Origin: a virus | IMG/VR virus record: IMGVR_UViG_3300006076_000002 | Span: 28,859-92,858 of that record | DNA: 64,000 nucleotides | Reading direction: 5' to 3' (one strand) | Shown: positions 9,274 to 34,139 of the stretch, piece by piece | How positions within the stretch are numbered: the first letter of the stretch is position 1 | Layout: every line of letters starts with the position of its first letter | Position numbers and translations under genes: made by a program | Notes under the pieces: generated by a model | Database searches by the model: none | What the model saw: only the letters and a program-made list of their open reading frames with translations | Told to the model about the DNA's origin: nothing

Positions 9274-9350
9274 TTTTATTACCACGACTAGTCGATGCCC
9301 TAGTCTATATGAAGGTGGTGGTAACCACAAGTCCGAAGGCATCACTATAT

Positions 9351-9424: not shown

Positions 9425-9539
9425 ACTGATTCTAAGTTGATTACTTGGCACCTACTACGAGGTGAATTCGTAGAATCTCTGGTTAAGCTACCCATGACAA
9501 AAATGAAAAGGCTAGAGTAGACTAATCATCTACTCGTAC

Positions 9540-9663: not shown

Positions 9664-9670
9664 AAAGGCG

Positions 9671-9913: not shown

Positions 9914-10115
9914 AACTCCAGTAGGTGCAGGTTATTATGCTTTACGTGAAAATACCTCTAAATGTGGTAAGAAGTACACAAAATTAGTTAAAGCAAATCG
10001 TTCACCAGAACCAGCTTATGGGGTACTTAATACACCTCCAAAACTGACACCTTCAGTAGGGCATAACCAACGTAGACAAAAAATCCTAGATAAAAGGAAA
10101 ACTAATGGTAACTAA
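9882..10115 (+). CDS. hypothetical basic protein
   Basis: AAGGA RBS. Confidence 0.6.
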   Translation: MGELEQKMYSETPVGAGYYALRENTSKCGKKYTKLVKANRSPEPAYGVLNTPPKLTPSVGHNQRRQKILDKRKTNGN

Positions 10116-10779
10116 AGAAGGTATTAAACTACTAATAGTAGCTCCAGAGAATTCAGGTAAAACACGTCTTATTAGCAATATTGAAAGTGGTTTAGTTATG
10201 TCAACGGACAACAAAGCATTCCGTGGTAAAGTACCACACTTCCGTTATAATATTTACAATGGTTTAGATGACTTAATCGAAACAATTAGTTCTAAACTTG
10301 AGGCCTACGAATCTAAATTTGGCAAACTGCCAGAAACATTTGTAATTGATTCCGTAACTCACTTACAGAATATAATCATCAAATACAATAATGATAAGTA
10401 CACAGGTTTTAATATCTGGACAAATATTAACCGTGACGTATTAGCTATTAATTCATTCATTGAAGAGGAACTAATTCCAGCCGGAATAAATGTAGTTATG
10501 ACTGCTCACGTAGTTTACGACACTGAAGCAGCACGTTGGAAGATTGACAGTCCGGGTAACTTCGGTAAAACTGGGAGCTGGCTTAGTATAGTTGACGAGA
10601 GTGTGTTTATAGAAGTCAAAGGTAACAAACGTATTCTTCACTTCAGCACTATGAAGTTCCCATGCAGAACCCTTCAAGCAGATTTACCTGAATCAATCAA
10701 CGTAGACGATTTTGATATTAATAAACATATTAAACTGCTTGAATCATCCGTACAGGAAAGTGAGGAATGGGCGATATAA
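10105..10779 (+). CDS. AAA_24/Sak4-like ATPase (recombination)
   Basis: Walker A-like APENSGKT, Walker B FVIDS, VVMTAH; located near nuclease and SSB. Confidence 0.8.
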   Translation: MVTKEGIKLLIVAPENSGKTRLISNIESGLVMSTDNKAFRGKVPHFRYNIYNGLDDLIETISSKLEAYESKFGKLPETFVIDSVTHLQNIIIKYNNDKYTGFNIWTNINRDVLAINSFIEEELIPAGINVVMTAHVVYDTEAARWKIDSPGNFGKTGSWLSIVDESVFIEVKGNKRILHFSTMKFPCRTLQADLPESINVDDFDINKHIKLLESSVQESEEWAI

Positions 10780-10786
10780 GGACCAT

Positions 10787-10867
10787 TTAAGCACATTAGT
10801 TGTACAATTCGTACCCAACATTGGATATTACCTATAAAGGATTACTTAAGTTATGTTCTGTTATACT
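10787..10867 (+). promoter_or_regulatory. two tandem promoters (TTAAGC-N10-TACAAT 10787-10808; TTAAGT-N10-TATACT 10846-10867) with an orphan AAAGGA RBS between them
   Basis: Both match window-wide motif. Confidence 0.55.
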
Positions 10868-10943
10868 TTTAATCTACGCAGGGTTAATATACTGCACCAT
10901 CTAAACTTTACGGAATTGCCAAATTCTATAAAAAGGAGTTTAG

Positions 10944-11687
10944 ATGAACTCAAATGAAATTAAAGTACTACATAACAAACCTTTTAAAGGTAAATTTAAG
11001 CCACTCAAGCAAGAGAATTATGTTTTAAAGGTATTAGCGGATTTAGGTATGCAGTATCCTACTAAATCCTCTAAACAGAAAAAGCGTATGGTACATATTG
11101 AATGTAAATGTGGAGATATTCTTACTGTACAAGAAAAGCAGTTCAGAGATAATCACGCTAGAGTATGTAAAAAATGTTCAAATAAAGATAAAATTATATT
11201 TGGAGATAGTTATAAAGACTCTATCGGATTTTATCTTAGAAAAATACATTCTGGTGTTAAAGGTAGATGTACTAACCCTAAAAATAAAGATTACGAAAAA
11301 TATAGTAAGTTAGGTATATACCAACCTTGGATGGATTATAGTGTATTTAGACATTGGGCATTAACTAATGGATACAAACCGGGATTAACTATTGATAGGG
11401 TAGATAACAATAAAGGGTACTATCCAAATAACTGTAGATGGACTACTAAAAGTATACAAGCACAAAACACTAGAGTTTTACGTTCTACTAATAAATCTGG
11501 TTACAGAGGGGTTAGTTGGAATAAAAAAGAGAATATATGGAAAGTTAATATAATGACGAACGGTAAAAATAAATATTTAGGTAGATTTACTACAGCCTTA
11601 GAAGGCGCTAAAGCTTATGATACCTACGTAGTTGAACATAATACTCAACATAATATTAACGGAGTTTTATACTCTGAATTACGATAA
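10944..11687 (+). CDS. free-standing HNH-AP2 homing endonuclease
   Basis: CKCG, LTIDRVDNNKGYYPNNCRW, NKSGYRGVSW...YLGRF...AKAYD. Confidence 0.9.
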   Translation: MNSNEIKVLHNKPFKGKFKPLKQENYVLKVLADLGMQYPTKSSKQKKRMVHIECKCGDILTVQEKQFRDNHARVCKKCSNKDKIIFGDSYKDSIGFYLRKIHSGVKGRCTNPKNKDYEKYSKLGIYQPWMDYSVFRHWALTNGYKPGLTIDRVDNNKGYYPNNCRWTTKSIQAQNTRVLRSTNKSGYRGVSWNKKENIWKVNIMTNGKNKYLGRFTTALEGAKAYDTYVVEHNTQHNINGVLYSELR

Positions 11688-11724
11688 GTTAATTTAAAGA
11701 ATTAAATATAAAAGGAAATAATAA

Positions 11725-12411
11725 ATGAGTTTTTTTAAAACAAAAAGAGATAGTGAGTCAGTAAAAGAAAGAGTTGGAGGAAGTTCTAAATTTTTAAATA
11801 AAGCCGGAATATACGATGTAAATGTAATTGCAGCATTTGTAAATGAAGGTAAAGGTGGATCTTTAACAGTTGACTTTTTCATTGAGAAAGATGAGCAACC
11901 ACAACCATTATACGGATCTCTTAGAATTACCAACAATAACGGTGACGAGAACAAGATTGGTGCAGCAACATTCAATAAACTACTAGTTATTCTTGATGAA
12001 GATGAAGCAGCAGATCCAGAGGAAGCAACTCTACCAATGGGTAAAGATGGTGCAGACAAAGATGTAGCTGTAATTCCTAACCTAACGGATTTTGAAGTCA
12101 AAGTATGGGTAGCTATCGAGTATTCAGTATACAATGGCTCTATCAAAGAGAAGAAAGTAATTCGTAACTTTTACCGTGCAAACGATGGTGCATCAGCAGA
12201 GGAAATCGTTAATGAAGCAGAACCAGGTCAACAGTACGCTAAAGATCTTGAGTACCTTGAAACTTCAGAAAACAAAGGTGTAATCTACAAAGATAATCTT
12301 ACTGCAGACCAAGTACAAGAGTGGATCAAAGGCGGACGTAAAGAAGGCACTGTAGGTGGAAGCACATCAGCAGCTAAGCCTAATTTCTCAAAACGTAGAT
12401 TTGGAAAATAA
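11725..12411 (+). CDS. single-stranded DNA-binding protein (N4 gp45-like position)
   Basis: Follows AAA ATPase; GIYDVNV beta pattern, G/S/A-rich tail ending in FGK. Confidence 0.6.
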   Translation: MSFFKTKRDSESVKERVGGSSKFLNKAGIYDVNVIAAFVNEGKGGSLTVDFFIEKDEQPQPLYGSLRITNNNGDENKIGAATFNKLLVILDEDEAADPEEATLPMGKDGADKDVAVIPNLTDFEVKVWVAIEYSVYNGSIKEKKVIRNFYRANDGASAEEIVNEAEPGQQYAKDLEYLETSENKGVIYKDNLTADQVQEWIKGGRKEGTVGGSTSAAKPNFSKRRFGK

Positions 12412-12609
12412 ATAGTTTAAGGAAAGTTATCAGCCTTAAAGAGAGACTAAGTCTATCGTATACAGAGACTATAAACCTTGCACCCTAACTTTGTCAGTTA
12501 ACTAGGTTAAATAAAACTGATCGTCTAGAATTCACAAAGACGCAAACTTTTGAATCCCACGTCCAGCAGTACGGAGGTCAGTAACTACTGCTATTTATAA
12601 AGGAAAATA

Positions 12610-12900
12610 ATGGAAAATAAAGAATTGCAAGATTTACGCAAACAGTGCAGTAAATTAGAAAAACAAGTAAAGAAACACTTAAAGAATACGCTTAGTATTT
12701 ATGCAGAGCTATTGGCAGGTTTTGAAAAACAAGACTCGCTAGACCCTGACGAAGTAGGTGTTATCATAGCTTCTTTAGGTTTACAGACTTCACGTGTATT
12801 TGATACACTAAACGATAAAGACTTATCCGTACAAGAGTTGGCTTCTAAGCTTAAACGTATTAATAAAACACCAACTGTTACAACTACAAAGGAAAAATAA
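12610..12900 (+). CDS. hypothetical protein
   Basis: AAGGA RBS. Confidence 0.7.
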   Translation: MENKELQDLRKQCSKLEKQVKKHLKNTLSIYAELLAGFEKQDSLDPDEVGVIIASLGLQTSRVFDTLNDKDLSVQELASKLKRINKTPTVTTTKEK

Positions 12901-13181
12901 TGAACAAACAACAATTTATTGAAGAACTATCTCTACTAGAAGATTTTGAGTCTAAGGCAGCTGCAGCTCGTGCAGTCGAATTAGCTATCGATATTATTAC
13001 TAAACAAGTAGCTTCCGGTAACGAAGTAGTTATCAGTGGATTAGGTAAATTCTATCCACATAAACAAACAGGTAAAAGTGGGAAAGTTCCAGGTACTGAC
13101 AGAACATATACTACTCAAGATAAGATGGTACCTAAGTTCAAAGCAGCAAAAGCTTTCAAAGACACTGTAGCTGGAGTGTAG
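12900..13181 (+). CDS. hup: HU/IHF-family DNA-binding protein
   Basis: MNKQQFIEEL...GNEVVISGLGKF...GKVPGT...VPKFKAAKAFKDTV. Confidence 0.9.
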   Translation: MNKQQFIEELSLLEDFESKAAAARAVELAIDIITKQVASGNEVVISGLGKFYPHKQTGKSGKVPGTDRTYTTQDKMVPKFKAAKAFKDTVAGV

Positions 13182-13184
13182 ACT

Positions 13185-13307
13185 ATGTCTACTCTTCAAT
13201 ACATTAAAAATCGGCTAAACGAACAAGTACAATGTACAGTAGGTTTCAAAGTATTTACTTACTTATCCTTCGCATTAGTATGGCTCACTCTAGCGTTAGG
13301 AAAATAG
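13185..13307 (+). CDS. 40-aa small membrane protein
   Basis: GGAG RBS; C-terminal hydrophobic stretch VFTYLSFALVWLTLALG. Confidence 0.45.
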   Translation: MSTLQYIKNRLNEQVQCTVGFKVFTYLSFALVWLTLALGK

Positions 13308-19311: not shown

Positions 19312-19488
19312 TTGACTTTAGAACAATTATTCTCGATTCTACGTAATCTTGAGGAACTAAAACTACAAGGCGGTAAACGCTATAAAGCAATTACCTTATT
19401 ATTGCAGAAGGAAGCTACAACACACAATTGTGCTGAAGCCAGAATTCTGCTAGATCAGCTACAGTCCTCTATGGATAGCCTCAACTAG
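19312..19488 (+). CDS. possible 58-aa protein (TTG start) overlapping the convergent gene end
   Basis: Open frame fills the gap; no clear RBS. Confidence 0.3.
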   Translation: MTLEQLFSILRNLEELKLQGGKRYKAITLLLQKEATTHNCAEARILLDQLQSSMDSLN

Positions 19489-22400
19489 TGGGATTTCTGT
19501 CCCACCATTAAGTAGACTGCCCAAACCGTGGAATGGATTAATTCTATTCCAGAATACAGAGAACAAGTTACTATCAAAGATATCCGATTCATCACCCAAC
19601 ACTGCTTGCTCTAATTTACTAGCTGCAACTCTTGCCGGTGATTCCTTCAGCATTTTAATATTAACTCTCTGTATATTTGCAAAATACGTCCAAAATGCTT
19701 CAGGACCCATTCTCTCTAACCATCTGACAGTTTTACTGTTTATAACTTTGCTATAGTTAATAAAGCTATCCGTAACAAACCTGAATACATCCTCCTCATT
19801 CTCACCTTTTTCCATCTTAGCCCAATACATAGCAGCTCTAAAGTGAAAGTCACTCTCTCTAGTAGCTCTCAACAAGAACTTACCTGCTGCACTTCTCTGA
19901 GTCAAGAACAACGTCTCAACTGCATCTCTAGCTAATCCTTCATCACCTGTAACCTTTTCAGATAATCCTCTCAATTTTTTACTAATTTTATTTGTATCAT
20001 CATATATTGCAACATCATCAATTACCGACTGGTACAAACCTTTAGCCATCAATGGTCTCAACGGATTATTATCCAACTTGTACTGCACATCTGATATGTT
20101 TCTCTCAAGATTAGCTTTTTTACTCCCACTAGCACCTTTAACCAATCTCTGCAATCTATGTAACTCCTCCTCATCTTTTTTCCAGGTATCTAATGATCTA
20201 ATACTTTTAATCATCAACGTAATTGCCTGTCTCACCGGCACTCCGCTATAAAACAGTATCCTCATATTCGACAGTATATTATTCCATATAGTACTAGGTA
20301 ATCTGACAACCACATTACCTTTGAGCAATCCTATGAAATCCTTCCAGTAACTTTCAACAACCTGTACTTTATATTTAGTTCCAACATCCACCTTATTAAA
20401 TATTTTCATATCTGTAATACTCGGCTCTTGATATCCGAATAACTGAGCTATCAAATCTTTACGTATATAAATCTCTCTCCTTGGATTGTCATCTACACTT
20501 TTAAGCTGTTCTTCCATTGTCATACGATATCTTTTATCTGTATCATGTATTCTCTTATACACCTCAGTACCAGGCTTTTTAGCATCTTCACGTATTTTAG
20601 CCTTATCTACTTCTATGTTATGCTTAATAATATTATCTCTGGCATCTGGCGGTAACAATCCCCATAGTTCCTCACCTTCAGTTTTAATCCCATATTTACC
20701 TTTATCCAGTAACTCTTTATTACCATTCTTATACATCTCACGTCTAGTCTCTTCACTTAAGTCAAAATCCTTAGCTCTTACGTGTATAAACAATCTCGAA
20801 GTATCTTTAGTTGGATCGTTAGACTTAATATAACTATCTGCATAATCCTTATACAATATCCTAAGTACCTTTTGATTCTCCTTATCTGTCATCGGTTGTG
20901 TGCCTACGTGTCCCTCACTCTTAGCCAACACTTCTGCACCTCTAGTATCTAATTCTAAATATCTAATTTTGTCTTTCTTGCTAATTCCGTACCTAAAATC
21001 TGTTATATACCCTTGATCATTGAACACTGGATGCATATTTCCTATATTTTCACCATCCATATATTTTTGCACTAATGCACTCCTACTTCTTATATACAAC
21101 TTCCATACAGCATCTTCAGTCAATCCTGGATTTGACATTCTTATCTTATCTCTAAGTAGCAGCCCTTGCACTTTTTCTCTCTGCAGACCTACCGAACCAT
21201 CTACACGTCCAGCTACCTGCAAGTTACTATTTACATACTTTCCGTACTGCACTGGATCAGCATCCTTCAAGTCTCTATCTAGCACTTCAACCAGTGTAAA
21301 CCCTAACTCATTCATCTTTTTCTTCTCAGATACCGGAGCTATCTGTAGTTCTCTATTCCTATTGTAAGTATCTCTCACCTGCCCTTTTACATAGCTTTGA
21401 GGTTCATACTTATCATACTCCTCTTTCACAGCTACCTGCAATCCTTTAGCGTACTCTGTATATGCCATAACCCCATCAGGATCTTTCTCCAGTAATTCCA
21501 GCATAGTATCTTTAGCTTTGTCATCTATATGTGTCAATGCGTACAACGATATCAGCTTATCCACATCTTTAACTAACTTCTCATCCACTTCTGTTTCCCA
21601 GTAAGGCTTCATCTCTATGTGTGTACCAAACCCTCTAACTATGTTCTCTGCATTGGTTCTCAACCCTACCCCAGTAACCGCATACTGAGCAGCTTTGTGT
21701 GCATCCTTAGTTATCGCTTTATACCAGAAGTCACTACCTTGCTTAGCTATTTTAGCCTCTAATTCTTTAATATCTTTCCCAGGATTAGTTATATACCCTT
21801 TTAAACCATATGCACTCTCAGCATCCAATGCCTGTAGATCTGCTGACATAATTACTGCTTCCAGTGCATGGTCATACTTCTTATTCTCTTTCTTAAGTAA
21901 ATCCACTTTCTTAAACATAGTCTTATACACATCTACCAGTGTACCTTCATAGTTCTGGTGTCTTAATCTATCTATGTGTGATCTAAACTCCATAGTTAAG
22001 TCGGTAACCAGCTCTAATGTCTTTCTACCTGCCGTAAAATCTGCAAACAACTTTCTCAAGAAGCTATCCTCTGCAATCTTCATAGCTGACAAATAGTTAC
22101 CCCATAGGATCGCTAGGTGTGGTCTCTGGTACTCATCTGCACCTTGTATAGCAGCTTTAAACTTAGGCAGTATTCTAGCTAACTTGATAAACTTGACCAG
22201 TATATTGTCACTGTCTTTAGGCCAATTATGCTTTATTGGATTATACAAATCATCAAACTCTTGTTGTGTCATACCTTGTTTAGTTACACCTAATGTATTC
22301 TGTAGTAAATCATCCACTCTACCCGATATTTTCTTATCTACTTCATCTAACACTTTATTCAATGTATCTGATACTTTTTCATCTGCATGCTTACCACGTC

Positions 22401-23679
22401 TCATTGCTGCTTCACTACCGTACTTATCCTTGATAGCCATCAACTTGTATATCGTTTTAACCGTCTCTTCTTCTACATTCTTACCCTTAGCACCTTTAAA
22501 CTTATGCACCACTTTAGCTAGAAAGTCAGCTATCATATGCACTACCTTATCATATGCACTTTTATATTCTTTCTCTTTCTTCTCTGTAGTTATACTTTCT
22601 AGTGCATTCTTCATCTGTTTATTCGTCATAGCATATGCCATAAACTCCTGCAATCTTACAGATGCTGCTCTAGTATCTTCTTTACCTTTTCTACCGAAGA
22701 TGTAATCATATCTATCTTTAGCAGCATCTTTCTCCGCTTCCGTATACAACCCATCCTTAACTAAATGTTCTGGTTTCAGAGTCTCTCTAGCCTTCTTATA
22801 CAGCTCTTGTATCTGTAACTTCAGTGCATCTGCTTCTGTACCTGCATGTTTATTGTCAAACACCCAATCCAATGCTGCATGTACTACTTCATGTACCAGT
22901 GTCTCCTCATTTGTCATAGTTAACCTATTTCTAGCTTCTTGACTTAATGTACCTGTCTTTATTTTTATCGGAGCTAGTGGGTCATTCTTATCAAACTGTC
23001 CGTAAGGCTCTACCACTTTAGCTATCTGTTCTGTATTCAGCTTAACTACTGTCTTACCCAGATCCTTACTCAGCTTCATCACATTGCTCAATACTTCATC
23101 TAAATGCTTCCCATGTTCACTGTCATACTCTTCACCCATCAGACTTTTATCTAGTCTTCTAAGCTCGTCTCTTACATTCAGTATCGTATTTTCTGTACTC
23201 TCTTCACCAAGAAACAGTCTATCTATATCCTCATCTGTGAGTTCATCTTTGTTGTACAGCACATCATTCACGTACCCTCGTTTAATTACCTCTGTAACCC
23301 CTGGCATCTCCACCACTGTTCCATTAGCTTTCGTAGCTATACTTTTCTCACTACCCCTCTCAAACGTGTACTGGTGATTGTTATCTAGCACAACTGTAGT
23401 CTTACCTGCTCTAGGCTTGTATATGACTTTCTTTATACCTAGTTTCTTACTCTCTCCACTCTTCAGTGGGTCCTTGTTGCTGTAGTGTACCCAGACATCC
23501 TTTGGCATGTTATCCTGTAGATATTTCTCTGTAGCCTTTTTACGTGACTGCCAGTATACCTTCTCAGCTGTAATCTGCTTAGTGAGAGCTTCTACTTCTC
23601 TCTCTAGCTCATCACCTTTATACTTACCTTCTAACTCTTCTCTTACTTTAGCTTCTATGCTTCTTGTATCACATGCCAT
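19459..23679 (-). CDS. virion RNA polymerase C-terminal portion encoded as a separate gene (zincin HExxH domain)
   Basis: ETLVHEVVHA and QEFMAYAMTN resemble the C-terminal region of N4-type vRNAPs; GGAG RBS and TAATG coupling; a single Cys (residue 3). Confidence 0.75.
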   Translation of the reverse strand: MACDTRSIEAKVREELEGKYKGDELEREVEALTKQITAEKVYWQSRKKATEKYLQDNMPKDVWVHYSNKDPLKSGESKKLGIKKVIYKPRAGKTTVVLDNNHQYTFERGSEKSIATKANGTVVEMPGVTEVIKRGYVNDVLYNKDELTDEDIDRLFLGEESTENTILNVRDELRRLDKSLMGEEYDSEHGKHLDEVLSNVMKLSKDLGKTVVKLNTEQIAKVVEPYGQFDKNDPLAPIKIKTGTLSQEARNRLTMTNEETLVHEVVHAALDWVFDNKHAGTEADALKLQIQELYKKARETLKPEHLVKDGLYTEAEKDAAKDRYDYIFGRKGKEDTRAASVRLQEFMAYAMTNKQMKNALESITTEKKEKEYKSAYDKVVHMIADFLAKVVHKFKGAKGKNVEEETVKTIYKLMAIKDKYGSEAAMRRGKHADEKVSDTLNKVLDEVDKKISGRVDDLLQNTLGVTKQGMTQQEFDDLYNPIKHNWPKDSDNILVKFIKLARILPKFKAAIQGADEYQRPHLAILWGNYLSAMKIAEDSFLRKLFADFTAGRKTLELVTDLTMEFRSHIDRLRHQNYEGTLVDVYKTMFKKVDLLKKENKKYDHALEAVIMSADLQALDAESAYGLKGYITNPGKDIKELEAKIAKQGSDFWYKAITKDAHKAAQYAVTGVGLRTNAENIVRGFGTHIEMKPYWETEVDEKLVKDVDKLISLYALTHIDDKAKDTMLELLEKDPDGVMAYTEYAKGLQVAVKEEYDKYEPQSYVKGQVRDTYNRNRELQIAPVSEKKKMNELGFTLVEVLDRDLKDADPVQYGKYVNSNLQVAGRVDGSVGLQREKVQGLLLRDKIRMSNPGLTEDAVWKLYIRSRSALVQKYMDGENIGNMHPVFNDQGYITDFRYGISKKDKIRYLELDTRGAEVLAKSEGHVGTQPMTDKENQKVLRILYKDYADSYIKSNDPTKDTSRLFIHVRAKDFDLSEETRREMYKNGNKELLDKGKYGIKTEGEELWGLLPPDARDNIIKHNIEVDKAKIREDAKKPGTEVYKRIHDTDKRYRMTMEEQLKSVDDNPRREIYIRKDLIAQLFGYQEPSITDMKIFNKVDVGTKYKVQVVESYWKDFIGLLKGNVVVRLPSTIWNNILSNMRILFYSGVPVRQAITLMIKSIRSLDTWKKDEEELHRLQRLVKGASGSKKANLERNISDVQYKLDNNPLRPLMAKGLYQSVIDDVAIYDDTNKISKKLRGLSEKVTGDEGLARDAVETLFLTQRSAAGKFLLRATRESDFHFRAAMYWAKMEKGENEEDVFRFVTDSFINYSKVINSKTVRWLERMGPEAFWTYFANIQRVNIKMLKESPARVAASKLEQAVLGDESDIFDSNLFSVFWNRINPFHGLGSLLNGGTEIPLVEAIHRGL

Positions 23680-26600
23680 TAGTCACACTCCAACTGATCT
23701 AGTATTTTATTTGCTATTATATCCATTTCTGGGTTAGTCTCTGCTTTAACCTCTTGCAAAGGTCTATTAGCTAACGGAGTATCAACCACCTCGTCGGGCT
23801 CAACACTATGATTTTCGTACACCAATTCTTTTGGTAATTTACTCTTATCTAGTTTATTCTTAGGCACTTTAGGTACGTATTCCTCTTTACCTTCAGCTCT
23901 ATACTCAGCACCATCTAATGCACTGTGTCCTACACTGAAGTCAGTCTCAAACAGCACTTTACGACCTTCTTCAGCTCTTTTCTGTAATTGTTCCATCTCT
24001 TTCACTGTACTTCTCATTGTAGGTAGATGTGTTATATCTCTCATTCTACCAACACTCATCATAGCTATCCTAGCATTATCACTCATATCCATTTCACTGA
24101 CTGTATTCAGGTACTCGTTGTAAGCATCGCTCAAATCACCATCAAGCTTACTCAGGAATGTTTTAACCGCAGCTAACACTTCATTTTGATTCTTACCTAT
24201 CTCAACTACTAATTCTTTCTGTTCTGCGTATGACAACCCGTCTAATGCTGTAGGTGCTTCACCTTGTATCATATCGTATATGTCACTTACCGGATTCGTA
24301 AGCATCTTTCTAACTACATTCAGTACAGACTCCATAGCCGTATCATCTTCTACTTTCTGTATGACTTCTTTATCTACACCATTCAACGTAGCATACAAGC
24401 TATCTAGCATCTCTGTAGTTAAACTCCAATCCTTGCTCAAATGATATGCAGACTTGTTGTAAGACTTAGTTACACCCATAGCTTTATCTACTGTAGCGAA
24501 GTTTGCATCATGCACTCCTAATGCTTCCCACTTAGCTAGCACTTCAGCTTGTATCGAAGCATCCTGTGCGTGTATCGGCATTACCGCTCCACTAGTAAAC
24601 GCAACTACCATCTTGTACAACTCACTGTTAGCTCTCAGCTTATCACCGTTAGCTCTCTCTATCTTACCCTGGAGGTTTATAGCAGTGTTCATAGTACCTT
24701 CTGTCCAATCACCTTTAGCAGTCTTGAACAGCACCATTTGATCCCCATTACCATTGTCTAATGCCATATTTATAATCGGTAAGATAACCTTATTAGCTTT
24801 GAGTATAGCATCCACTTCTTTAGTAGTTAACGGTACCCATTTACTTTTATGTTTACCCTCATTCTTCTTTTTAGTTTCTATATCTATTTGTTTATTCACT
24901 TCTTCTAATGCAATCTTACCTATCAACGCAATCGTACTATTCGTAGTTCTAGTAGCCTTAATCAATTCTCCATACTGTTCTTCAAATGTATCTCTAATCG
25001 GTTTACCAACCACTCTAGCTACATGCTCTTGTACCATCTCGTAGAAGTTATCCGGTATCTTCATGTTAAGCACATTCATCGGTGTTTTATCTAACTCTGC
25101 CCTCAACTTACCTAACCATGCATCTACAGCTTCACTTTGCTTATCGTAGTACATTTTCTTACCTGTAGACGGATCTACCATCAAATACGAAGATGCTTTT
25201 AATGCTCTCTTCATCAGGTCAAATGCACCCTCTACTTCACTTACTTTCTTAGATGTTGCCATCGTAGTCATTAACGCATTCAAGTTACTTTTAGAGGGAT
25301 ATGGTGTACCACTAGTAGATAATGCTCTCTTAGCTATACTATTGATAATACCTTTCATACCTGAACCGTAGTTAAGTACCATGAACGGATGTTTCATGAA
25401 TGCTCTAGATATTTCTTCTATCAGATGTTCTTCACCATCACGTGTACCTTCTCCAAGTAACTCCATAGCTACTTCCATACCTTGGAGTATACCTTTAGCT
25501 CTTTTCTCTATCTCTGCTTGCGTACCTTTAACTAAAGCTGGGTGTGGAACCGGTTTTCCTATGAAACTTGGTACCGGATCTACAAACTTTAATTCCGCTA
25601 ACCCTTTACTGTTATCGAGTACTACTCCTTTAATTTCACCCTTCACATTTATATTTACTTTTTTAGCGTTTTCCACTTTCTGCCTAAATAATTCAGCAGG
25701 TTCTTGGTATGCATCTCTCTTAGTCTTATCATCAGCTATTTCTGAATACTTTGGCACGTGTCCATCTTTTACTCTCATGAATCCACCACGCTCTAATTCT
25801 TCAAACGTTTTCTTCATGTCAAGTTTACCACCCTTCACGAATATTGGCATCTGTAGCATCTTGAGTATGTAACCGCTAGTTACTGCATCCGTCTCTAACA
25901 TGATCGTAGACATATATGCTTCATCACTAGCACTTTCTTTATGGTTCATGTACTTGAGTATTTCTATCATACCTTTTATACCATGCTCATCATGCACACC
26001 TAGCACATCCACTAACTCTTTCAGATCGTCATTTGTAATATCTTGTATTGTAGGTATCTTAGCATCACCAAACACTCCATTAACTTTAGCTTCTAACCCT
26101 GCATACTGTTTTATAGATTTACCCATAGGTAACTTATCTACATCAACACCTAGTGCTTGCCCGATAGCTAACTTTAATATCTTCTCTTCTGTACTACCTA
26201 GTTTAACTTCAGCTTTACCCATGTCTGTAGCAAATCTATGCAATAGTATTGATTGATGGTCAAATTTACCACCTATGATACCAAATCTAAAGTTTGTAAG
26301 TATTCTCCACTTCTGCCAGAATGGTTTCTTACCTTTATCTGTAGCTTCATACACTTCATCTAGTAGTTTCTTCTGTCTATCTATAGCGTCATTCTTACCT
26401 TTAGCACCTTCTCTTTCATTCACATATATCGTATCTGGGTCTACTTTACCTAATATCTTATCTAGCAGTGAGTATGGTACATCTTCTCCGTTCTCATCAT
26501 ATCCTGTAGTGTCTGCAATTCCATCTAGCTTATCTAACCCTGTCATGAAATCTTCACCGATAGTCAATCTTGTATCACTCTGCTTCTTAACTGCTTTAAC

Positions 26601-29600
26601 TCTAGGTTCCGACACTGAGAACAACTTAGACACACTTTGGTGTTCAGTAGGCGTATCCTCCATCTCATGCTTGTTATCTTCTGTGTATATACCCAATGAA
26701 TCCTCAGTAGGTTCTAATACCTTTTCTAAGTCTGTAGTCATACCTTTATGTGCTTTAATCAGATCTTTAGCTGTAGTTGTCAAATTGTATGTAACTATAT
26801 CTGGTTTACCTGCATCTTTATCATTCTCATATATCATTGCAGCTGGAGTCTTATACCCTTTCTTAAACACCATTTCTTTCTTAAGTTTTATATCTCTATC
26901 TTTAGCATTTAGTATTATATACTCAGCTTTCTCTAACGCTAACATACCTAGCATACCTAACTCTGCTTTTAGTTTCTGCTCTATATACTCAGTATCTAAC
27001 CCTTCTGGTGCATCCTTTACAGCTTTAAGTCCTAGTGCTTTCCAAGCCTTATTACCTATAGTACTTGACACATAATCCATTATTCCATCAAAGTCTTTGA
27101 TTGACATTCTATCAGTCTGGCTTACCGGAGCATTTTTATCCATACCCTTCAACGCTCTTACTGCATTGTTGTCTCTACGTTCTGAGTCAAACTTAGCCAT
27201 ACTATCTGTCAACACTTCTACTGCGCTTGTTGCCAATGCCTCAGCTACCTTACCGTTTAACTCTAGTTTACCTTTATTAGCGAACTCACCTTCAGGCACT
27301 GTATATGCCATTAGCATTCTACTTACACTTTGGAATCCTTCTACACTATCTGTACCAAACCACACCATGTTAGCTCTTGCAGATGATAAGTCATTCTCTA
27401 CTACACTTTGTACACTTCCTGTCAATTTCTTTATAGTTACACCTGCAGTAAGCAAGTTCTTCTGTGCTACACTTGACAGTGTTTCCTTTTTCTGTGCTAG
27501 TAACTCTCTTAGCACATCTAAAGCTGTAGCATTTAAATTCTTAGGCTCTGTAGCAGCTTTGAAGAACTCGTGTAAGTAACCTTTGCCGTATGCAACATCT
27601 ACACCATTTTTAGCTTCAGTAACGTGATGGGATTTATTGTCAGCAGTCCATGCAAGTATACTACTAGCTACTTTGTTATCTCTTTCAGCTGTTTTATCTA
27701 TCAGTTCAGATTTCTTTTCTTTGATTGCAGCTTTGGTGTCTTTTACCTTATTATTAACCTCTTGCATTTGTAATATACGCTTTATGGTTTTCTTTCTAGT
27801 TTCTGTTAATTTTCGTTCTTTGCCTTGTGTTTGGTCTTTTATGAAATCTTTTTTATATTCAAGCTCATCTTTTTTAGCTACCTTTTTGTCAATAGCCTGT
27901 TGTATACTACTTTCTACTTTTTTGTTGGTAGTTTCAGCTAGTTTATTATACAACGCATCAACACTGCTATCTATGCTTGCTATATAGCTATTTATACGCT
28001 TTATACTAGCATTAGACTTTTCTAACTGTTTAGCTGTCCACATCCTAGTTTGTATGGCATTTCTGAGTATATGTCTTTTAGTATTTTTAAAGTTATACCC
28101 ATCTGTCAGTTTATCTAGTGTGTTCTGTTTCTCGTATACTTCTTTTTCTAGCTCTTTAATTTCAACCTCTAAATTGGCTATTTCTTTATCTATACCTGTT
28201 AGCTCTTCTTGCTTAGGTTTTGTGCTCTCTGTATTGCCTTGTCCAGTACTTTGTTCTGTTCCTGTAGTAGTGCTTTTTTCTTCTGTAACAACTTTAGTTT
28301 CTTCATTTTGTTTTGCATCTATTTTTCCTTTATTTAGTAATCCTAATTTTTTAAGCGCAAATACATTTGCATCTTTTTCATATAATGCAGGATCAGCAGT
28401 ATATTTTTTTCTGAACTCTTCTTTTCCGTATTTGCCTATCTGTTGTGTATGTCGATACTCGTGTAATAACAGAAATTTACGTATATCTTGTGGGCTTAGC
28501 TTACTTATCGTATCTAAGAAGTCTATACTATAGTCTTTATTTATGCTATCTGTAACCTGTTGTTTAGTAAGTATAACCTCTTTAGACTTTTCGTCTTTAA
28601 ACTCTCTATGAGTACTTAAGTAATCTAATACCTTTTTTGCTGTAATGTTCTTACTGAGTCTAATTTTACTACCGTCAGAAGAGGTACCAGCCAACTGTCC
28701 ATTAGAAGCATCTGCCGAGTAGTATCTAATAGGTATACCAGCTACAGTAGCTGTCTGTACATTCGCATTTTTCTCTTTTACTGCACCTTCTACGACAGGT
28801 GCAGCTTCCTCAACCTTTTGCTGCGTAGTTTCAGCTTGTTGTGGCTTACCTACCTCTAGTGTACCGTTGATAGTGTCTGTAGCTAAACTGTTTATGTCTT
28901 GTAGTAACTTGTACTCTTTCTCTAATTTTGCTGTAAACCCTTCAGACTTTTTACCGTCATACACGTACTTACTTCCAGGATAGTTCACATCTACTTTTAG
29001 TTTAGCTAGGTCATTTTTAGCTTTATCTAACCCTGCAGCATCTTTACCTATAGCCTCTAAGTTTTTGATAGTTTCACGTAAGTTATCAGCCTTCTCTTTA
29101 TACACTCTTTGAGCAGCTTTAAATGCATCCCTCTTCTCTGCTTGAGTACTCATAAACTTATTCATAGCTATTATTGCACTATCTCTAGCTGTATCTGATT
29201 GAGCGTTTATGACTGCATCTAGGTGTTCTAGCATCCCTAGTTTTCGCTTACCTTTGTACTCTCCACCAAGCAGCTTTAACGCTAACGATTCATTCTTATT
29301 AGCTTTATCTACTACCGTAACCCCATTAAAGTCTTTACTATGTACCAGATCACTAACCAATTTCTCAGCTTTCAGTTTAGCTAACTCTTTTACCTTTTCA
29401 CTTTTAACAGTTTCATCTGTTATATCAGCTAACTCTGTCTGAACTTCTGCCATATCCTTAGCTATTTCTTTAGGGTCCCTATTCCCTAATATTTCTGATT
29501 CACCATTTAGTTTACGTCTAAGGTTCAGAGCATCTTGCAGATGTTTAGTAACTAACTCTTTTTCAGTTATTATCTCTGGAGTACTGTCTAATGAATCTAA

Positions 29601-31820
29601 TGTTGTTAAATGAGTCATTAAGTCATCTATATTTTTATTTAACCCAGGTTTACCATCTGAACTACCATTCAGTATAACCTTTTTCATAGCATCTTTAACT
29701 TTAACGTTCTTAGGATCATCAACCTTGCTAGCTATACTTTGAAACGTAGGTACATTTGTCATTGCTCTATTAGCGGCATCTCTACTAGCCGCTAGTTCTT
29801 CATCTGTAGTTACCTTGGCTTCTACCGGTTTACTACCTTTAGGTAATTTACTTTTTAAACTATTCACTGCGTTTGATAATTCTGCTACACCTTGAGTTGC
29901 ACCTGCAATGTGTCCACCTGCTAGCCCTTCTATACCAGCCACTTTAGCATCTAATTGATTCTTCTCATTAGCTATTATGCTTTGTAGGTCATCACCTTTC
30001 TTACCAGTATCCCACTGTTTACCTAGTATGTCTGCCCACTGTTGTAAGTACTCTTCAGTACCTTCTACTGCCATACCCTTACCGCCTGCAGCTGCCATCC
30101 TACCTGCTGACTTTAGTACTGAATGCCATAATTTATCAGTTGCTTTCTTACCTAGTACGCTAACTGAGTCTTTCAATGCTACTTTAATCGGTTTAGTGAT
30201 TACCATTGCACTCTCTAACCCTATGTAAGTCTGTAATGCTGCTGATATACTAGCTAATGCAATGTCTTCTCCTCCAGTGTGTTTCTGCCCTTCAGCTTCA
30301 TTTCTAGCTGCTAAGGTATCATTAGCTATTCCAGTGAACATCGCAGTAGCACCGGCTCTCTCTATTCCTTTAGCTAGTACTTTCTGAGCCATGTTTAGCT
30401 TGTTATTAGCAGCAGCAGTCAACTTCTCTGCTTGCACTACCTTACCAGCTTTCATTAACTGTGCAGCTTTCTCATATGCCTTACCTATTTTACTGCCATT
30501 CTTAACTACCATCATGCCAGCTTTTGCTTCACCAGCCCCTATCATGAATGTACCAACGCTACCAACTACGTTACCCACGATGTTACCACTACGCATTGCA
30601 TGCCATGCAGCCATCCCGTAGTTACCTTTCTTTATGTCATCCTCTACTTGTGCTTGTTCTCTTTGTGCTTGATCAGTGTTAACTCCGTATGTTGCATCTG
30701 CCATCTGACCTATGTTCTCGTTCGTGTAGTACTCTTTCGTATCGTTGTACCCATCACCACCTAACCAACTAGCTACTCCATTCATCTTGAAACTGTGGGC
30801 TATGGCATCTTTCTTCTCTGCTTCTAGTTTAGCTCTTTCTTCTTTACTTGTGGCATTAGCTATTTGATGGTCATAGTAAGCTTCTTCTGCTTTACCTATC
30901 AACCAGTCAGGTGCGTCATTAGCTACTGCATCTATTGCCTGACCTATTGTACTAGTAACTGTACTTGCAGTTCCTTTAGCGACCCCTTCTAGGAATCCTT
31001 GATCACCAAATTTAGCTTTGTTTAATGCAGCTAGTAATGCTTCTCCATTATCTACCGGTTGTATTTCACCTTTATTACCGAATGAGTCTTCGTATGCGAA
31101 TCTTCCACCTGTATTAACTTGGTTATCATTATGCATTACCGCATTTATGTCTACCCCTTCTTTATTCGCTAAGTATCCTAGTTCACGTGACATATTCGAT
31201 TTTTGTACACCTTTTACCTTTACTGGTATATTCATGCCATTGCCGCCACTGTAGGCATTTTTACTTAAGTCCGTCCTAGCTCCCGGTATGTATGGTGCTT
31301 CCCAGTCACTATTACCATTTACTATATCAGCTAGTTGCTGTATCTTATTCATGTTAGCTACATCTAGCATGTCTTGCTCAGTAATGTTAGCTGCAGTCTT
31401 GTGTGCATTTGGATTGTTTTGGTTTATTACGTCAGCAACGCCTTGTCTTTGTGCATCCATTGATAGTGCACTTTTACTGTATTTGTATTTTTCTGGTTGG
31501 TTACGCTTTAAGCTGGGTTCTACTCCATACATATCGTATGGACGATTACCGTGTAAGGTCTCTACTGCATCTATTCCAGCAGTTCTGTATGTGGATTCTT
31601 TACCTGTTGTAGGATCGATTGTAGTGAATCCATCACCGTCATCCCCTGTGTATTTGAGTATGGCATCACTGTAAGTACTAAGTCTATCTCCTGATAGTTT
31701 GTTAATCTTATCTTGTGCTCTTTGCTGTAAGTTGTCTACTTTAGTATTAGTTGAATTCGACCCAAATGCTGCTATGTTTTCCGCTATGTTTTCTGCTGGG
31801 TCTTGTAGGTATTGAGGCAT
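23679..31820 (-). CDS. giant virion-encapsidated single-subunit RNA polymerase (N4 gp50-like), N-terminal and catalytic portion
   Basis: Motif A LETDAVTSG, motif B RAFMKHPFMVLNYGSG, motif C GVHDA; 2713 aa; a single Cys (penultimate residue); N4 synteny. Confidence 0.88.
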   Translation of the reverse strand: MPQYLQDPAENIAENIAAFGSNSTNTKVDNLQQRAQDKINKLSGDRLSTYSDAILKYTGDDGDGFTTIDPTTGKESTYRTAGIDAVETLHGNRPYDMYGVEPSLKRNQPEKYKYSKSALSMDAQRQGVADVINQNNPNAHKTAANITEQDMLDVANMNKIQQLADIVNGNSDWEAPYIPGARTDLSKNAYSGGNGMNIPVKVKGVQKSNMSRELGYLANKEGVDINAVMHNDNQVNTGGRFAYEDSFGNKGEIQPVDNGEALLAALNKAKFGDQGFLEGVAKGTASTVTSTIGQAIDAVANDAPDWLIGKAEEAYYDHQIANATSKEERAKLEAEKKDAIAHSFKMNGVASWLGGDGYNDTKEYYTNENIGQMADATYGVNTDQAQREQAQVEDDIKKGNYGMAAWHAMRSGNIVGNVVGSVGTFMIGAGEAKAGMMVVKNGSKIGKAYEKAAQLMKAGKVVQAEKLTAAANNKLNMAQKVLAKGIERAGATAMFTGIANDTLAARNEAEGQKHTGGEDIALASISAALQTYIGLESAMVITKPIKVALKDSVSVLGKKATDKLWHSVLKSAGRMAAAGGKGMAVEGTEEYLQQWADILGKQWDTGKKGDDLQSIIANEKNQLDAKVAGIEGLAGGHIAGATQGVAELSNAVNSLKSKLPKGSKPVEAKVTTDEELAASRDAANRAMTNVPTFQSIASKVDDPKNVKVKDAMKKVILNGSSDGKPGLNKNIDDLMTHLTTLDSLDSTPEIITEKELVTKHLQDALNLRRKLNGESEILGNRDPKEIAKDMAEVQTELADITDETVKSEKVKELAKLKAEKLVSDLVHSKDFNGVTVVDKANKNESLALKLLGGEYKGKRKLGMLEHLDAVINAQSDTARDSAIIAMNKFMSTQAEKRDAFKAAQRVYKEKADNLRETIKNLEAIGKDAAGLDKAKNDLAKLKVDVNYPGSKYVYDGKKSEGFTAKLEKEYKLLQDINSLATDTINGTLEVGKPQQAETTQQKVEEAAPVVEGAVKEKNANVQTATVAGIPIRYYSADASNGQLAGTSSDGSKIRLSKNITAKKVLDYLSTHREFKDEKSKEVILTKQQVTDSINKDYSIDFLDTISKLSPQDIRKFLLLHEYRHTQQIGKYGKEEFRKKYTADPALYEKDANVFALKKLGLLNKGKIDAKQNEETKVVTEEKSTTTGTEQSTGQGNTESTKPKQEELTGIDKEIANLEVEIKELEKEVYEKQNTLDKLTDGYNFKNTKRHILRNAIQTRMWTAKQLEKSNASIKRINSYIASIDSSVDALYNKLAETTNKKVESSIQQAIDKKVAKKDELEYKKDFIKDQTQGKERKLTETRKKTIKRILQMQEVNNKVKDTKAAIKEKKSELIDKTAERDNKVASSILAWTADNKSHHVTEAKNGVDVAYGKGYLHEFFKAATEPKNLNATALDVLRELLAQKKETLSSVAQKNLLTAGVTIKKLTGSVQSVVENDLSSARANMVWFGTDSVEGFQSVSRMLMAYTVPEGEFANKGKLELNGKVAEALATSAVEVLTDSMAKFDSERRDNNAVRALKGMDKNAPVSQTDRMSIKDFDGIMDYVSSTIGNKAWKALGLKAVKDAPEGLDTEYIEQKLKAELGMLGMLALEKAEYIILNAKDRDIKLKKEMVFKKGYKTPAAMIYENDKDAGKPDIVTYNLTTTAKDLIKAHKGMTTDLEKVLEPTEDSLGIYTEDNKHEMEDTPTEHQSVSKLFSVSEPRVKAVKKQSDTRLTIGEDFMTGLDKLDGIADTTGYDENGEDVPYSLLDKILGKVDPDTIYVNEREGAKGKNDAIDRQKKLLDEVYEATDKGKKPFWQKWRILTNFRFGIIGGKFDHQSILLHRFATDMGKAEVKLGSTEEKILKLAIGQALGVDVDKLPMGKSIKQYAGLEAKVNGVFGDAKIPTIQDITNDDLKELVDVLGVHDEHGIKGMIEILKYMNHKESASDEAYMSTIMLETDAVTSGYILKMLQMPIFVKGGKLDMKKTFEELERGGFMRVKDGHVPKYSEIADDKTKRDAYQEPAELFRQKVENAKKVNINVKGEIKGVVLDNSKGLAELKFVDPVPSFIGKPVPHPALVKGTQAEIEKRAKGILQGMEVAMELLGEGTRDGEEHLIEEISRAFMKHPFMVLNYGSGMKGIINSIAKRALSTSGTPYPSKSNLNALMTTMATSKKVSEVEGAFDLMKRALKASSYLMVDPSTGKKMYYDKQSEAVDAWLGKLRAELDKTPMNVLNMKIPDNFYEMVQEHVARVVGKPIRDTFEEQYGELIKATRTTNSTIALIGKIALEEVNKQIDIETKKKNEGKHKSKWVPLTTKEVDAILKANKVILPIINMALDNGNGDQMVLFKTAKGDWTEGTMNTAINLQGKIERANGDKLRANSELYKMVVAFTSGAVMPIHAQDASIQAEVLAKWEALGVHDANFATVDKAMGVTKSYNKSAYHLSKDWSLTTEMLDSLYATLNGVDKEVIQKVEDDTAMESVLNVVRKMLTNPVSDIYDMIQGEAPTALDGLSYAEQKELVVEIGKNQNEVLAAVKTFLSKLDGDLSDAYNEYLNTVSEMDMSDNARIAMMSVGRMRDITHLPTMRSTVKEMEQLQKRAEEGRKVLFETDFSVGHSALDGAEYRAEGKEEYVPKVPKNKLDKSKLPKELVYENHSVEPDEVVDTPLANRPLQEVKAETNPEMDIIANKILDQLECD

Positions 31821-31855: not shown

Positions 31856-31877
31856 ATTATACCATAACTAAGCTTAC
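31856..31877 (-). promoter_or_regulatory. promoter GTAAGC-N10-TATAAT (TGn extended -10) for vRNAP
   Basis: Matches motif; AAGGA RBS downstream. Confidence 0.6.
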
Positions 31878-33538
31878 TTTAGGTTCTTTCTAGCAGTTGG
31901 ATTTAGCAAGGTGTTAGCAAGGTTTATATTCCTACTTTGCTGCAATGCCTTTATATTACGCAGTTGTTCCGCAGATAATGAACTTTTTGAAGGTTCACGA
32001 TTTATTAACCCATTTAAGAAGTTCTCTACATCTCCCCCATTAGGTATTATATGCTTAGGGTGGGCTTTATCGTACTTTTCCTTAGCTATGTAGAATGATA
32101 AGGTATCAGGATATTCAGTCACCAGCATACCTGGTTTGTAAGGGTTTAAGGCAGATCTGTTTACCTCTTTACTAACTTCCTTACGCTTTTTATTATTATG
32201 GGCAGTATTTACTTTTATTCCTTTAGCTGCTTCATTTAGCCATATGCTATCATTTGCTATTGCTTTATTTACTCGACTTTGTTGTTTACTGCCTAATCCA
32301 CCATACATGCTTGCAAACCCTTCAGGATTATTTACTGCTAGGCTAGCTAATGCGTGATCCCCTTTAGGGCTGTTCAATGCATCTAGTAGTGCATTACTTG
32401 TAGGTGCTTCCTTCTTATGTTGAGTACTACTACTCTGTTTACCCGTACTTGTTGTAATTGACTTACCTAATCTGTCAAGTATCTTGTTGTAATTGTTTCT
32501 ATCAGCTAGTAACTGCCCTAACGACTTTGACGTAACGTAGTTTGGGGTAATCTTAGCTATCTGTTTATCAGTTAATCCTGGTACTGCTGCTTTATTTCTA
32601 CCTGCATAACCGTATTCATTACGTAAGCCATCAACGTACTTTGCAACGTCTTTAGCTATTTTACCATTATTCTGGTATTCGAACTTGTAGTTAGTACCCC
32701 ATGTACCTGGATCTTTTGAGTGTGTGATGTACTCGTATGCTTCTGCAGGTGTGTACCCTTTTATGATTTTTTCTTTACCATTTACTGTTTCAGTTCGTGG
32801 AGATGTTAGTAAGTTGAACAAGGTCTTAGCTTGTTTATCATCGTACTTGATCGGCATGTAATCAGGTGAAGCTTTATTAGTTAACAAATCTAGGTATTTT
32901 TCATTGTCGCCCGGTTTGTGTGCAAATGTATAATGACCACCAGTGGACTTACTACCATCTTTACTATTAGCTATGTTAGCTTTCATTCCCATTTGTACTA
33001 GGAACTGCTCTCTTTTCACTCTTTTATCTTCCGCGTCGTTGTACGCTTTAGTTTGAGCTGCTTCATTAGCTAGTATCTCTTTCTTAGTATCGAATTGTTG
33101 ACTCAGTAACTTTGCAGCATTAGCTGCTTCCTGTGCAGTACCACCAGCAGCAAGCACCTTATTCGATACGTATTGACTAGCTTCACTTTGTGTTGGATTA
33201 TACCCCTGTGTATACGTATCATTAAATACCTGCATCTCTTTAGGCGTAAGTTCGCGTTTACCGTTATTAGTTATTTGGTTATACTTATCAACAACAGCAG
33301 TATTAGTTCGCATTAGTAGGTCTTCTGGTCTTACTGATTGAGCATCGAATCCTTTAGCTAAGTCGGAAACTGCACTTTGCACACCCAACTTTCTCTGACG
33401 GTCTTCTTGCTCATCCTGGAACCGTTTAGCTAGTATCTGGTTCTGGAATGCTTGCTGATTTAATGCAACCTGATCTCGCATTCTTTGACGTGATGCATCT
33501 TGTAAATTGTGGCTTACCTGTAAAAATTCTGATTGCAT
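31874..33538 (-). CDS. internal virion/ejection protein (N4 gp51 position)
   Basis: Cys-free, Q/A/N-rich; immediately upstream of vRNAP. Confidence 0.6.
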   Translation of the reverse strand: MQSEFLQVSHNLQDASRQRMRDQVALNQQAFQNQILAKRFQDEQEDRQRKLGVQSAVSDLAKGFDAQSVRPEDLLMRTNTAVVDKYNQITNNGKRELTPKEMQVFNDTYTQGYNPTQSEASQYVSNKVLAAGGTAQEAANAAKLLSQQFDTKKEILANEAAQTKAYNDAEDKRVKREQFLVQMGMKANIANSKDGSKSTGGHYTFAHKPGDNEKYLDLLTNKASPDYMPIKYDDKQAKTLFNLLTSPRTETVNGKEKIIKGYTPAEAYEYITHSKDPGTWGTNYKFEYQNNGKIAKDVAKYVDGLRNEYGYAGRNKAAVPGLTDKQIAKITPNYVTSKSLGQLLADRNNYNKILDRLGKSITTSTGKQSSSTQHKKEAPTSNALLDALNSPKGDHALASLAVNNPEGFASMYGGLGSKQQSRVNKAIANDSIWLNEAAKGIKVNTAHNNKKRKEVSKEVNRSALNPYKPGMLVTEYPDTLSFYIAKEKYDKAHPKHIIPNGGDVENFLNGLINREPSKSSLSAEQLRNIKALQQSRNINLANTLLNPTARKNLK

Positions 33539-33548: not shown

Positions 33549-34139
33549 TTATTGTTTCGCATACATCTTAGCAGCTTCAGCATTCGCTTTAGCATAGTTC
33601 TCACCTCTAATTTTTCTATCATTTCTAGAGTCATCATACTTTCTTTTAGCTAGTCCGTAAGTTTTTAACCCTAAGTCATACTGTTTATTAATCTGATCTT
33701 GACGTTGAGCTAGTGTTTTATTATTAGAAGTTATTCCGTATATATCCATACCTACACCGTATAAGCTCTGTAGTCCTTTGAATCCAGCAGAAGTTGTGAA
33801 GTCACCACTAACTTTAATAGGCTCCATTTTACCAGTTTCTGGGTTAAATTTATAACTTGTTTGCTCTTGTGGTTTCCACGCTTTATCCCATTTTTCAGAG
33901 AATCCATCAAATATACCAGAGTTATTTGTAGTAGGTGCAGTTGTAGTAGGTTTAGCAAAGTATCCTACATTTTTATCATTAAATACTAATCCGTTAGCAC
34001 CCATCTTAGCAGCTAGTTCTGGGTACTTTTCTGCAAAAGAGTTAAATTTATTCATATCAATTAATGTAGAACCGTCATAACCTTTACCACTAACTAGTGA
34101 AGAAGCTAATCCACCATTATTTAAAAAATCGTAACCCAT
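33549..34139 (-). CDS. small ejection protein (N4 gp52 position)
   Basis: Cys-free; Gly-rich amphipathic segment followed by coiled coil; synteny. Confidence 0.6.
   Translation of the reverse strand: MGYDFLNNGGLASSLVSGKGYDGSTLIDMNKFNSFAEKYPELAAKMGANGLVFNDKNVGYFAKPTTTAPTTNNSGIFDGFSEKWDKAWKPQEQTSYKFNPETGKMEPIKVSGDFTTSAGFKGLQSLYGVGMDIYGITSNNKTLAQRQDQINKQYDLGLKTYGLAKRKYDDSRNDRKIRGENYAKANAEAAKMYAKQ

Follow-up and report, generated by a model that had tools for sequence, protein, structure and literature searches.

In phage N4 and other Schitoviridae, such as Pseudomonas phage DEV, the virion RNA polymerase (vRNAP; N4 gp50, DEV gp71) is a single chain of ~3400-3500 residues that contains 0 cysteines, and the N4 protein is thought to be ejected unfolded through a tail channel of 30-45 Å (PMC13434306). 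Encapsidation of the N4 protein requires its C-terminal domain (CTD; cited in PMC3821669). The same domain is autoinhibitory, repressing transcription when in contact with the polymerase; it carries a zincin-like HExxH motif in its first subdomain and follows a disordered polymerase-to-CTD linker (residues 2102-2123) (PMC13434306). Among homologues of DEV gp71 the cysteine content is 0.00075%, as compared to 0.865% in the proteomes, an example of the suppression described for Schitoviridae ejection proteins, and in the same study gp72 homologues regarded as 'prematurely truncated' have cysteines close to their ends that were put down to sequence errors (PMC11445570). Here we describe a related locus in a 64,000-nucleotide stretch of viral DNA (positions 28,859 to 92,858 of the IMG/VR record IMGVR_UViG_3300006076_000002; the window, hereafter, is this whole stretch), where the vRNAP is encoded by two coupled genes, A and B, whose only cysteines face each other across the gene junction and probably join the two products by a disulfide.

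Two other described systems are relevant to this locus. For the Alteromonas phages AD45-P1 to P4, a split vRNAP was reported in 2013 and verified by PCR, resequencing and two gel bands (270 and 175 kDa); cysteines were noticed in the protein, from which the authors concluded that this vRNAP is not injected, leaving the positions of the cysteines unremarked (PMC3821669). In the cyanopodophage A4, cryo-electron microscopy of the virion revealed a disulfide between Cys1715 of gp27 and Cys5 of gp26, located beside a C-terminal helix that is docked in gp26; no polymerase function was given for gp26 and gp27, and the bond was not presented as a general rule (PMC12002296).

In the window, the vRNAP locus comprises the following elements, all on the minus strand.

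23679..31820 (-), vRNAP piece A, 2713 aa, N-terminal region and predicted T7-like polymerase domain (open reading frame list and translation; phrog_2206 match)
19459..23679 (-), vRNAP piece B, 1406 aa, equivalent of the N4 gp50 CTD (phrog_2206 match; BLASTP to N4 gp50)
23677..23691 (-), coupled junction (GGAG at 23688-23691, stop TAA at 23679-23681, start ATG at 23677-23679)
23685..23687 (-), TGT codon of Cys2712, the penultimate residue of A (LECD-stop; sequence reading and position count)
23671..23673 (-), TGT codon of Cys3 of B (MACD; sequence reading and position count)

The junction reads GGAG TGT GAC TAATG GCA TGT GAT, with a one-base overlap between the two genes and GGAG placed 9-12 nt 5' of the ATG. 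The initial annotation of this DNA had described a pair of coupled genes (2713 and 1406 aa), with TAATG as their overlap and GGAG as ribosome-binding site, as is borne out by the open reading frame (ORF) list and the sequence, and had found by eye a single cysteine in each protein, which the computed count places at A2712 and B3. The two pieces therefore contain 2 cysteines per 4119 residues, both at the junction, while other ORFs of this and related phage contigs average 0.96%. If one cysteine were placed randomly in each protein, the chance of both lying so close to the junction would be ~1.6e-6 (2/2713 x 3/1406). Two further statements of the initial annotation, that the neighbouring 554-aa and 196-aa proteins lack cysteine and that N4 vRNAP is cysteine-free, agree with the counts as well: 0 in both neighbours, and 0 in N4 gp50 (3500 aa), gp51 and gp52.

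The initial annotation had also left room for one continuous ORF across the stop codon, of which independent contigs show no sign: the junction is spanned without indels by the source contig and by ~90%-similar contigs from other vent-metagenome studies. In the nearest relative, L007, whose B is 77% identical, the same two genes meet in frame at TAG ATG instead of TAATG, so that one recoding mechanism could not fuse both. Since the independent contigs are free of indels and the split is kept in relatives with differing junction geometry, the split is not an assembly error. GenBank phages, searched with the junction at the nucleotide level, gave zero matches.

Related loci were collected from IMG/VR by searches with B and with a 15-sequence alignment of B relatives, and their large plus-strand ORFs were read; the resulting junction count covers 17 non-redundant loci with 30 junctions. 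The vRNAP is encoded as one piece in L025 (3679 aa, 0 Cys), as two in the window, L007, L009 and L024, as three in L008, L010, L011, L013 and L015-L021, and as four in L012. At all 30 junctions, the upstream piece has a cysteine 1-5 residues from its C-terminus and the downstream piece has one at position 3-4, such that pieces end 0-4 residues past the upstream cysteine and begin 2-3 residues before the downstream one. First pieces lack an N-terminal cysteine, last pieces lack a C-terminal cysteine, and internal pieces carry a cysteine at both ends, a pattern obeyed even by an internal piece of 224 aa (MSKC...RCKGSK-stop). The junctions themselves are diverse: some genes overlap (-4 or -1), others are 0 to +12 nt apart and one pair is separated by 187 nt (L019), and each junction has its own Shine-Dalgarno sequence and ATG; all three relative frames occur, and both TGT and TGC codons are used. 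This variation in geometry, frame and codon indicates that the constraint acts on the protein and not on the RNA.

The pattern is equally apparent in a wider sample. An exhaustive HMMER search with residues 1-1200 of B against 1.84 billion representatives of 50%-identity clusters produced 748 matches, the best 150 of which were analysed. Among these, 111 of the 115 CTD-sized proteins have a cysteine within their first 10 residues (at position 3 in 84 and at position 4 in 25), and beyond the first ten residues there are just 6 cysteines per 227,940 residues. Three apparent exceptions are truncated gene calls, as longer members of their clusters begin with MGC, MPMNC and MAC, and a fourth is a fragment of a fused, cysteine-free protein. 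The full-length fused forms in the same set have 0 cysteines in 11 of 11 cases, and so do the further fused vRNAPs examined, namely L025, PT15-A5 from Alteromonas (3496 aa) and N4 gp50. As a control, among 111 other ORFs of the same contigs a cysteine is found at positions 2-7 in 4.5% and in the last five residues in 9%. Conservation of the terminal cysteines in split homologues, which the initial annotation had set as a check, is thus seen at 30/30 junctions and in 111/115 stand-alone CTD proteins. Separate publications already describe the splitting of vRNAPs, the suppression of cysteine and a disulfide within one pair of ejection proteins; the apparent rule of a facing cysteine pair at every vRNAP fission site, read here from gene sequences, and its meaning are stated in no paper found by our literature searches.

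Several relatives show additional features. In the four-piece relatives L012/L014/L022 (850-13960), the pieces measure 1038, 1515, 374 and 1435 aa, and the three-piece loci L008 (1351-13945) and L013 (1497-14209) likewise have a short additional link (224-374 aa) that lies between their polymerase and CTD pieces; each small link has exactly two cysteines, one per end, and no counterpart of it is detectable in the window. Extra cysteines were noted at residue 371 of the L020 product (879-9344) and seven residues from the end of the L017 product (3698-7606), as a second cysteine (...EEVCNDGTSC-stop). In L026, a 2388-aa piece starting with MAC (6137-13303) has no partner directly upstream, and a 5'-open ORF located 5.3 kb upstream (2-817) that ends with ...IRECNV-stop and has a single cysteine is a possible partner. 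The two are separated by three ORFs, one of which encodes 1330 aa with 9 cysteines, and BLAST detected no similarity between the candidate distant partner and other first pieces. If this pairing holds, the cysteine partners may not need to be encoded by adjacent genes. The regions flanking the junctions were unalignable by BLAST between two-piece and three- or four-piece relatives, and cysteine gain at a homologous site could therefore not be traced residue by residue.

With respect to domain layout, A and B correspond to consecutive parts of one known family. Piece A matches the vRNAP family phrog_2206 over profile positions 687-2001 of 3406 (E 7e-56) and piece B over positions 2231-3009 (E 9e-117) in PHROGs, B aligns with residues 2446-2950 and 3127-3500 of N4 gp50 by BLASTP, and tblastn identified 323 matching phage records, most of them annotated as vRNAP. 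Two elements help to position the break.

22879..22893 (-), HEVVH (HExxH), residues 263-267 of B, marking CTD subdomain C1; invariant or near-invariant in alignments A1, A2 and A4
24504..25406 (-), tentative polymerase motifs in A: motif B (R-x3-K-x7-YG, residues 2139-2152) and motif C (VHDA, residues 2436-2439), assigned by regular-expression match only, inside the vRNAP-profile region

The N4 counterpart of HEVVH is HELVH at 2228. As A and B cover successive stretches of the profile, the candidate polymerase motifs lie in A, and B represents the CTD with its HExxH motif, the break falls between the polymerase domain and the CTD, the site of the disordered linker of N4. A second HExxH, HEYRH, occurs at residue 1120 in the N-terminal third of A (about 28447-28461).

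Both cysteines appear to be flanked by helices.

23688..23732 (-), amphipathic helix at the C-terminus of A (NPEMDIIANKILDQLE), which stops just short of the cysteine and is proposed as a docking element (hydrophobic periodicity in tails)
23509..23667 (-), helices at the N-terminus of B (residues 5-16 and 22-57), which follow immediately on the exposed Cys3 tail (AlphaFold2 model)

Counted from the cysteine, hydrophobic residues in the 31 upstream tails are most frequent at -3/-4, -7/-8, -10/-11 and -14/-15 and never occur at -1, a periodicity that points to an amphipathic helix which stops two residues short of the cysteine. The pattern TNPE.D.IA.KILD in the A tail is common to the window and L007. 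On the other side of the junction, 125 downstream heads have hydrophobic residues at +2, +5/6, +8/9 and +13/14 from the cysteine, with Pro and Gly depleted from +5 to +12. The AlphaFold2 model of residues 1-400 of B has a mean predicted local distance difference test score of 67, with 76-88 over the first 30 residues, and Cys3 is placed in a free four-residue coil (residues 1-4). In the alignment of relatives, M1 and C3 of B are invariant and the next ~130 residues are highly variable; C3 is one of few invariant columns in alignments A1, A2 and A4. A helix followed by a cysteine, facing a cysteine followed by a helix, suggests a small docking element that would unite the two thiols and could set junction specificity in three- and four-piece phages. 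A complex prediction for residues 1-620 of B with the last 234 residues of A (score 0.22, mark 0.32) counts neither way.

The locus resembles N4 and DEV in its homologous polymerase and CTD, with HExxH in the latter, and in the absence of cysteine outside the junction; as in N4, it follows two genes for cysteine-free ejection proteins in the same order. However, the N4 and DEV proteins are single chains, whereas the window encodes two chains of 4119 aa in total with a terminal cysteine pair, and the regions flanking the junction are longer than in N4. AD45-P1 has a similar arrangement, with a large polymerase piece and a ~1400-aa CTD piece, and in its GenBank record the sole cysteines of the two pieces are at -3 (...SKHCKQ-stop) and +4 (MTIC...). 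This phage is nevertheless very distant, being missing among the 60 tblastn matches listed, all of which were <26% identical. In A4 (Anabaena phage A-4L), two consecutive genes encode large ejection proteins whose only cysteines, at 1715 of gp27 (1717 aa) and at 5 of gp26 (1114 aa), are at -3/+5 as compared to -2/+3 in the window. A4 is a phage of another family (Saffermanviridae), and its disulfide has been seen in virions, whereas the phage of the window is known from its genes alone. In the comparison, which covered gp26 only, gp26 matched B at a BLASTP E value of 1.6 and the B family profile at an hhalign probability of 0.3%; given this lack of detectable homology, the A4 likeness is one of analogy and not of membership.

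Other natural systems also rely on joined chains or junction cysteines. In AB toxins such as diphtheria toxin and the clostridial neurotoxins, one disulfide ties the cargo to its carrier across a membrane, and reduction in the cytosol frees the enzyme. The logic of a reducible disulfide between cargo and carrier is shared with the arrangement proposed here, as a functional resemblance only; the toxin chains are produced when proteolysis nicks a single polypeptide, they are joined through internal cysteines, and there is no evolutionary relation. Split inteins are another natural means of rejoining the products of a split gene, with a cysteine at the junction. A split intein was rejected for the present locus because a Pfam search of A and B found nothing and because only one residue follows Cys2712 and two precede Cys3. 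Lipidation or prenylation of a terminal cysteine was considered and set aside.

The vRNAP of this phage is split, each piece has a unique terminal cysteine, and this arrangement is strictly conserved at all splits read in relatives. By analogy with A4, we consider it probable that Cys2712 (A) and Cys3 (B) are joined head to tail by a disulfide, which takes the place of the peptide bond lost in the split and yields one thread for packaging and injection. The A4 structure is the basis for taking the link in this phage to be a disulfide, and the proposed times of its formation and of its later reduction are likewise inferred. The interpretation offered in the initial annotation, of a disulfide standing in for a peptide bond, is supported by the sequence comparisons.

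A possible course of events can be outlined as follows. The gene of an N4-type vRNAP would have undergone fission at the flexible linker between polymerase domain and CTD, and coupled translation would yield A and B in roughly equal amounts. The two pieces may then meet non-covalently through the end helix of A and the first helix of B, and probably also through the interface between polymerase and CTD that is known from N4, after which a disulfide between Cys2712 and Cys3 would restore a nearly linear chain with an overhang of 1-2 residues on each side. Because both cysteines are at the extreme termini, the joined product would be almost linear and could thread through the tail. With the CTD as its carrier, the polymerase piece would enter the capsid, the joined protein would leave through the 30-45 Å tail channel as one unfolded thread, and in the reducing cytoplasm the bond would be broken and the polymerase detached from the CTD, a step that may double as activation. 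It is plausible that cytoplasmic reduction frees the polymerase from an autoinhibitory CTD, and this release gains plausibility from the fact that the N4 CTD autoinhibits the polymerase (PMC13434306). A broader version, in which fission of the giant cysteine-free ejection proteins of podophages is always offset by a cysteine clasp, with threads of 2-4 products, a cytoplasmic redox switch and independent origins in N4-like phages and in A4, is put forward only tentatively and may well not hold.

A link other than a disulfide would have to account for the same pattern. A metal ion shared by the two thiolates, in the manner of a zinc hook or as a Cu or Fe bridge, appears unlikely here, since each terminus offers one cysteine and neither cysteine has a conserved His, Cys, Asp or Glu beside it that could serve as second ligand: the residues after the N-terminal cysteine are mostly S, N, K and T, and those before the C-terminal cysteine mostly G, K, E and A. 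Such a bridge could assemble in the reducing cytoplasm and would thus solve the oxidation problem, and the pairing rule fits any cysteine-mediated bridge equally. At the 3.4-3.6 Å of the A4 map, telling a disulfide from a metal bridge is not trivial, but it was a disulfide that the A4 authors modelled (PMC12002296). The terminal cysteines might alternatively bond elsewhere, to another copy of the same piece, the capsid, the portal or a host component, or serve as a redox sensor. Homodimers of A and of B are compatible with the sequence of a two-piece system; however, the A4 pair is heterotypic, and bonding elsewhere leaves unexplained why cysteines occur only at splits and always as a facing C- and N-terminal pair, and why the outer ends of first and last pieces and the fused forms have none. 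We regard this explanation as improbable, somewhat more so than a shared metal ion.

Explanations at the level of the gene fare worse. The downstream Shine-Dalgarno sequence (GGAG or AAGGA beside TGT) supplies the codons for the G, E and K residues before the C-terminal cysteine, and the cysteine codons could in principle be a by-product of translational-coupling signals, including the stop/start context, or due to chance. This is highly improbable, as the downstream cysteine at +3/+4 is outside any Shine-Dalgarno sequence, spacing, frame and codon vary, the pair is kept over a 187-nt gap (L019) and possibly over 5.3 kb (L026), and other coupled genes of the same contigs lack the pattern while the proteins are otherwise cysteine-free. 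Finally, there might be one real gene, with the stop codon being a sequencing error or bypassed by programmed frameshifting or readthrough, and the AD45-P1 locus is indeed annotated as 'potential frameshift' in GenBank. Nevertheless, contigs of the source run, as well as those of other studies, cross the junction without indels, and splits found in every relative frame, with a separate Shine-Dalgarno sequence and ATG in each case, do not fit any single recoding mechanism. For AD45-P1 itself, the stop codon was checked by resequencing, and gels showed two polypeptides (270 and 175 kDa) (PMC3821669). A single gene is the least credible of these explanations and can practically be dismissed.

Several points weigh against a disulfide between A and B. 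The sole structural proof of such a bond comes from A4 proteins without detectable homology to the vRNAP pieces. Assembly takes place in the reducing cytoplasm, and when and where oxidation occurs is thus a difficulty; searches of the complete 92.9-kb genome for thioredoxin and glutaredoxin gave zero matches, and a search of the phage genome for Erv1/Alr found nothing but was uninformative, as the control genomes also gave nothing. Sulfidic vent water could disfavour disulfides as well. Moreover, the N-terminal cysteine is absent in five representatives (P0030, P0046, P0068, P0139 and P0096), and extra internal cysteines are found in the CTD pieces P0005 (residue 591), P0013 (residue 666), P0021 (residue 1087) and P0054 (residue 1103).

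The genome that contains the window is a complete virus record of 92,858 bp with direct terminal repeats, and the phage originates from a hydrothermal vent metagenome; among the sequencing runs listed for this stretch, none was an RNA run. Vent metagenomes of other studies and years contain contigs ~90% similar to the junction region (23300-24100), which indicates that this phage lineage recurs in hydrothermal vent samples. The vRNAP locus is surrounded by an N4-like structural module that includes portal, major head protein and terminase, and the two cysteine-free neighbours are located next to A.

31874..33538 (-), 554-aa cysteine-free protein at the position of N4 gp51, the gene order being that of N4 gp52-gp51-gp50
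33549..34139 (-), 196-aa cysteine-free protein at the position of N4 gp52, assigned on position alone

Searches of Pfam and PHROGs gave zero family matches for both proteins. Within the structural module, an HNH endonuclease gene (phrog_59, E 1e-34) is found at 39624-40628 (-), between the genes for the major head protein and a virion protein. The 968-aa ORF of the terminase large subunit (58922-61828, -) has a PHROG profile match restricted to residues 43-507, and another frame within it contains a 285-aa ORF with 17 cysteines (6%) at 59154-60011 (-).

The prevailing view in the N4 field is that the vRNAP must lack cysteine in order to cross the periplasm, and how so large a protein (~3500 residues) can be packaged and pass a 30-45 Å tail is a standing question. 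The occurrence of cysteines only as facing pairs at fission sites suggests that chain continuity itself is under selection, in which case the protein would need to travel as a single thread, with a disulfide able to take the place of a peptide bond. Two published readings would be corrected accordingly, namely that the AD45 vRNAP is not injected because of its cysteines and that the terminal cysteines of 'truncated' ejection proteins are sequencing errors; both the AD45 cysteines and those at the ends of DEV gp72 homologues may be unrecognised clasp cysteines. AD45-P1, growing on Alteromonas macleodii, provides a cultured system where the rule is testable, and the arrangement would represent a natural design for the redox-cleavable joining of very large proteins. 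For the phages themselves, the rule offers a handle on the order of packaging and ejection and on whether activation of transcription requires detachment of the CTD.

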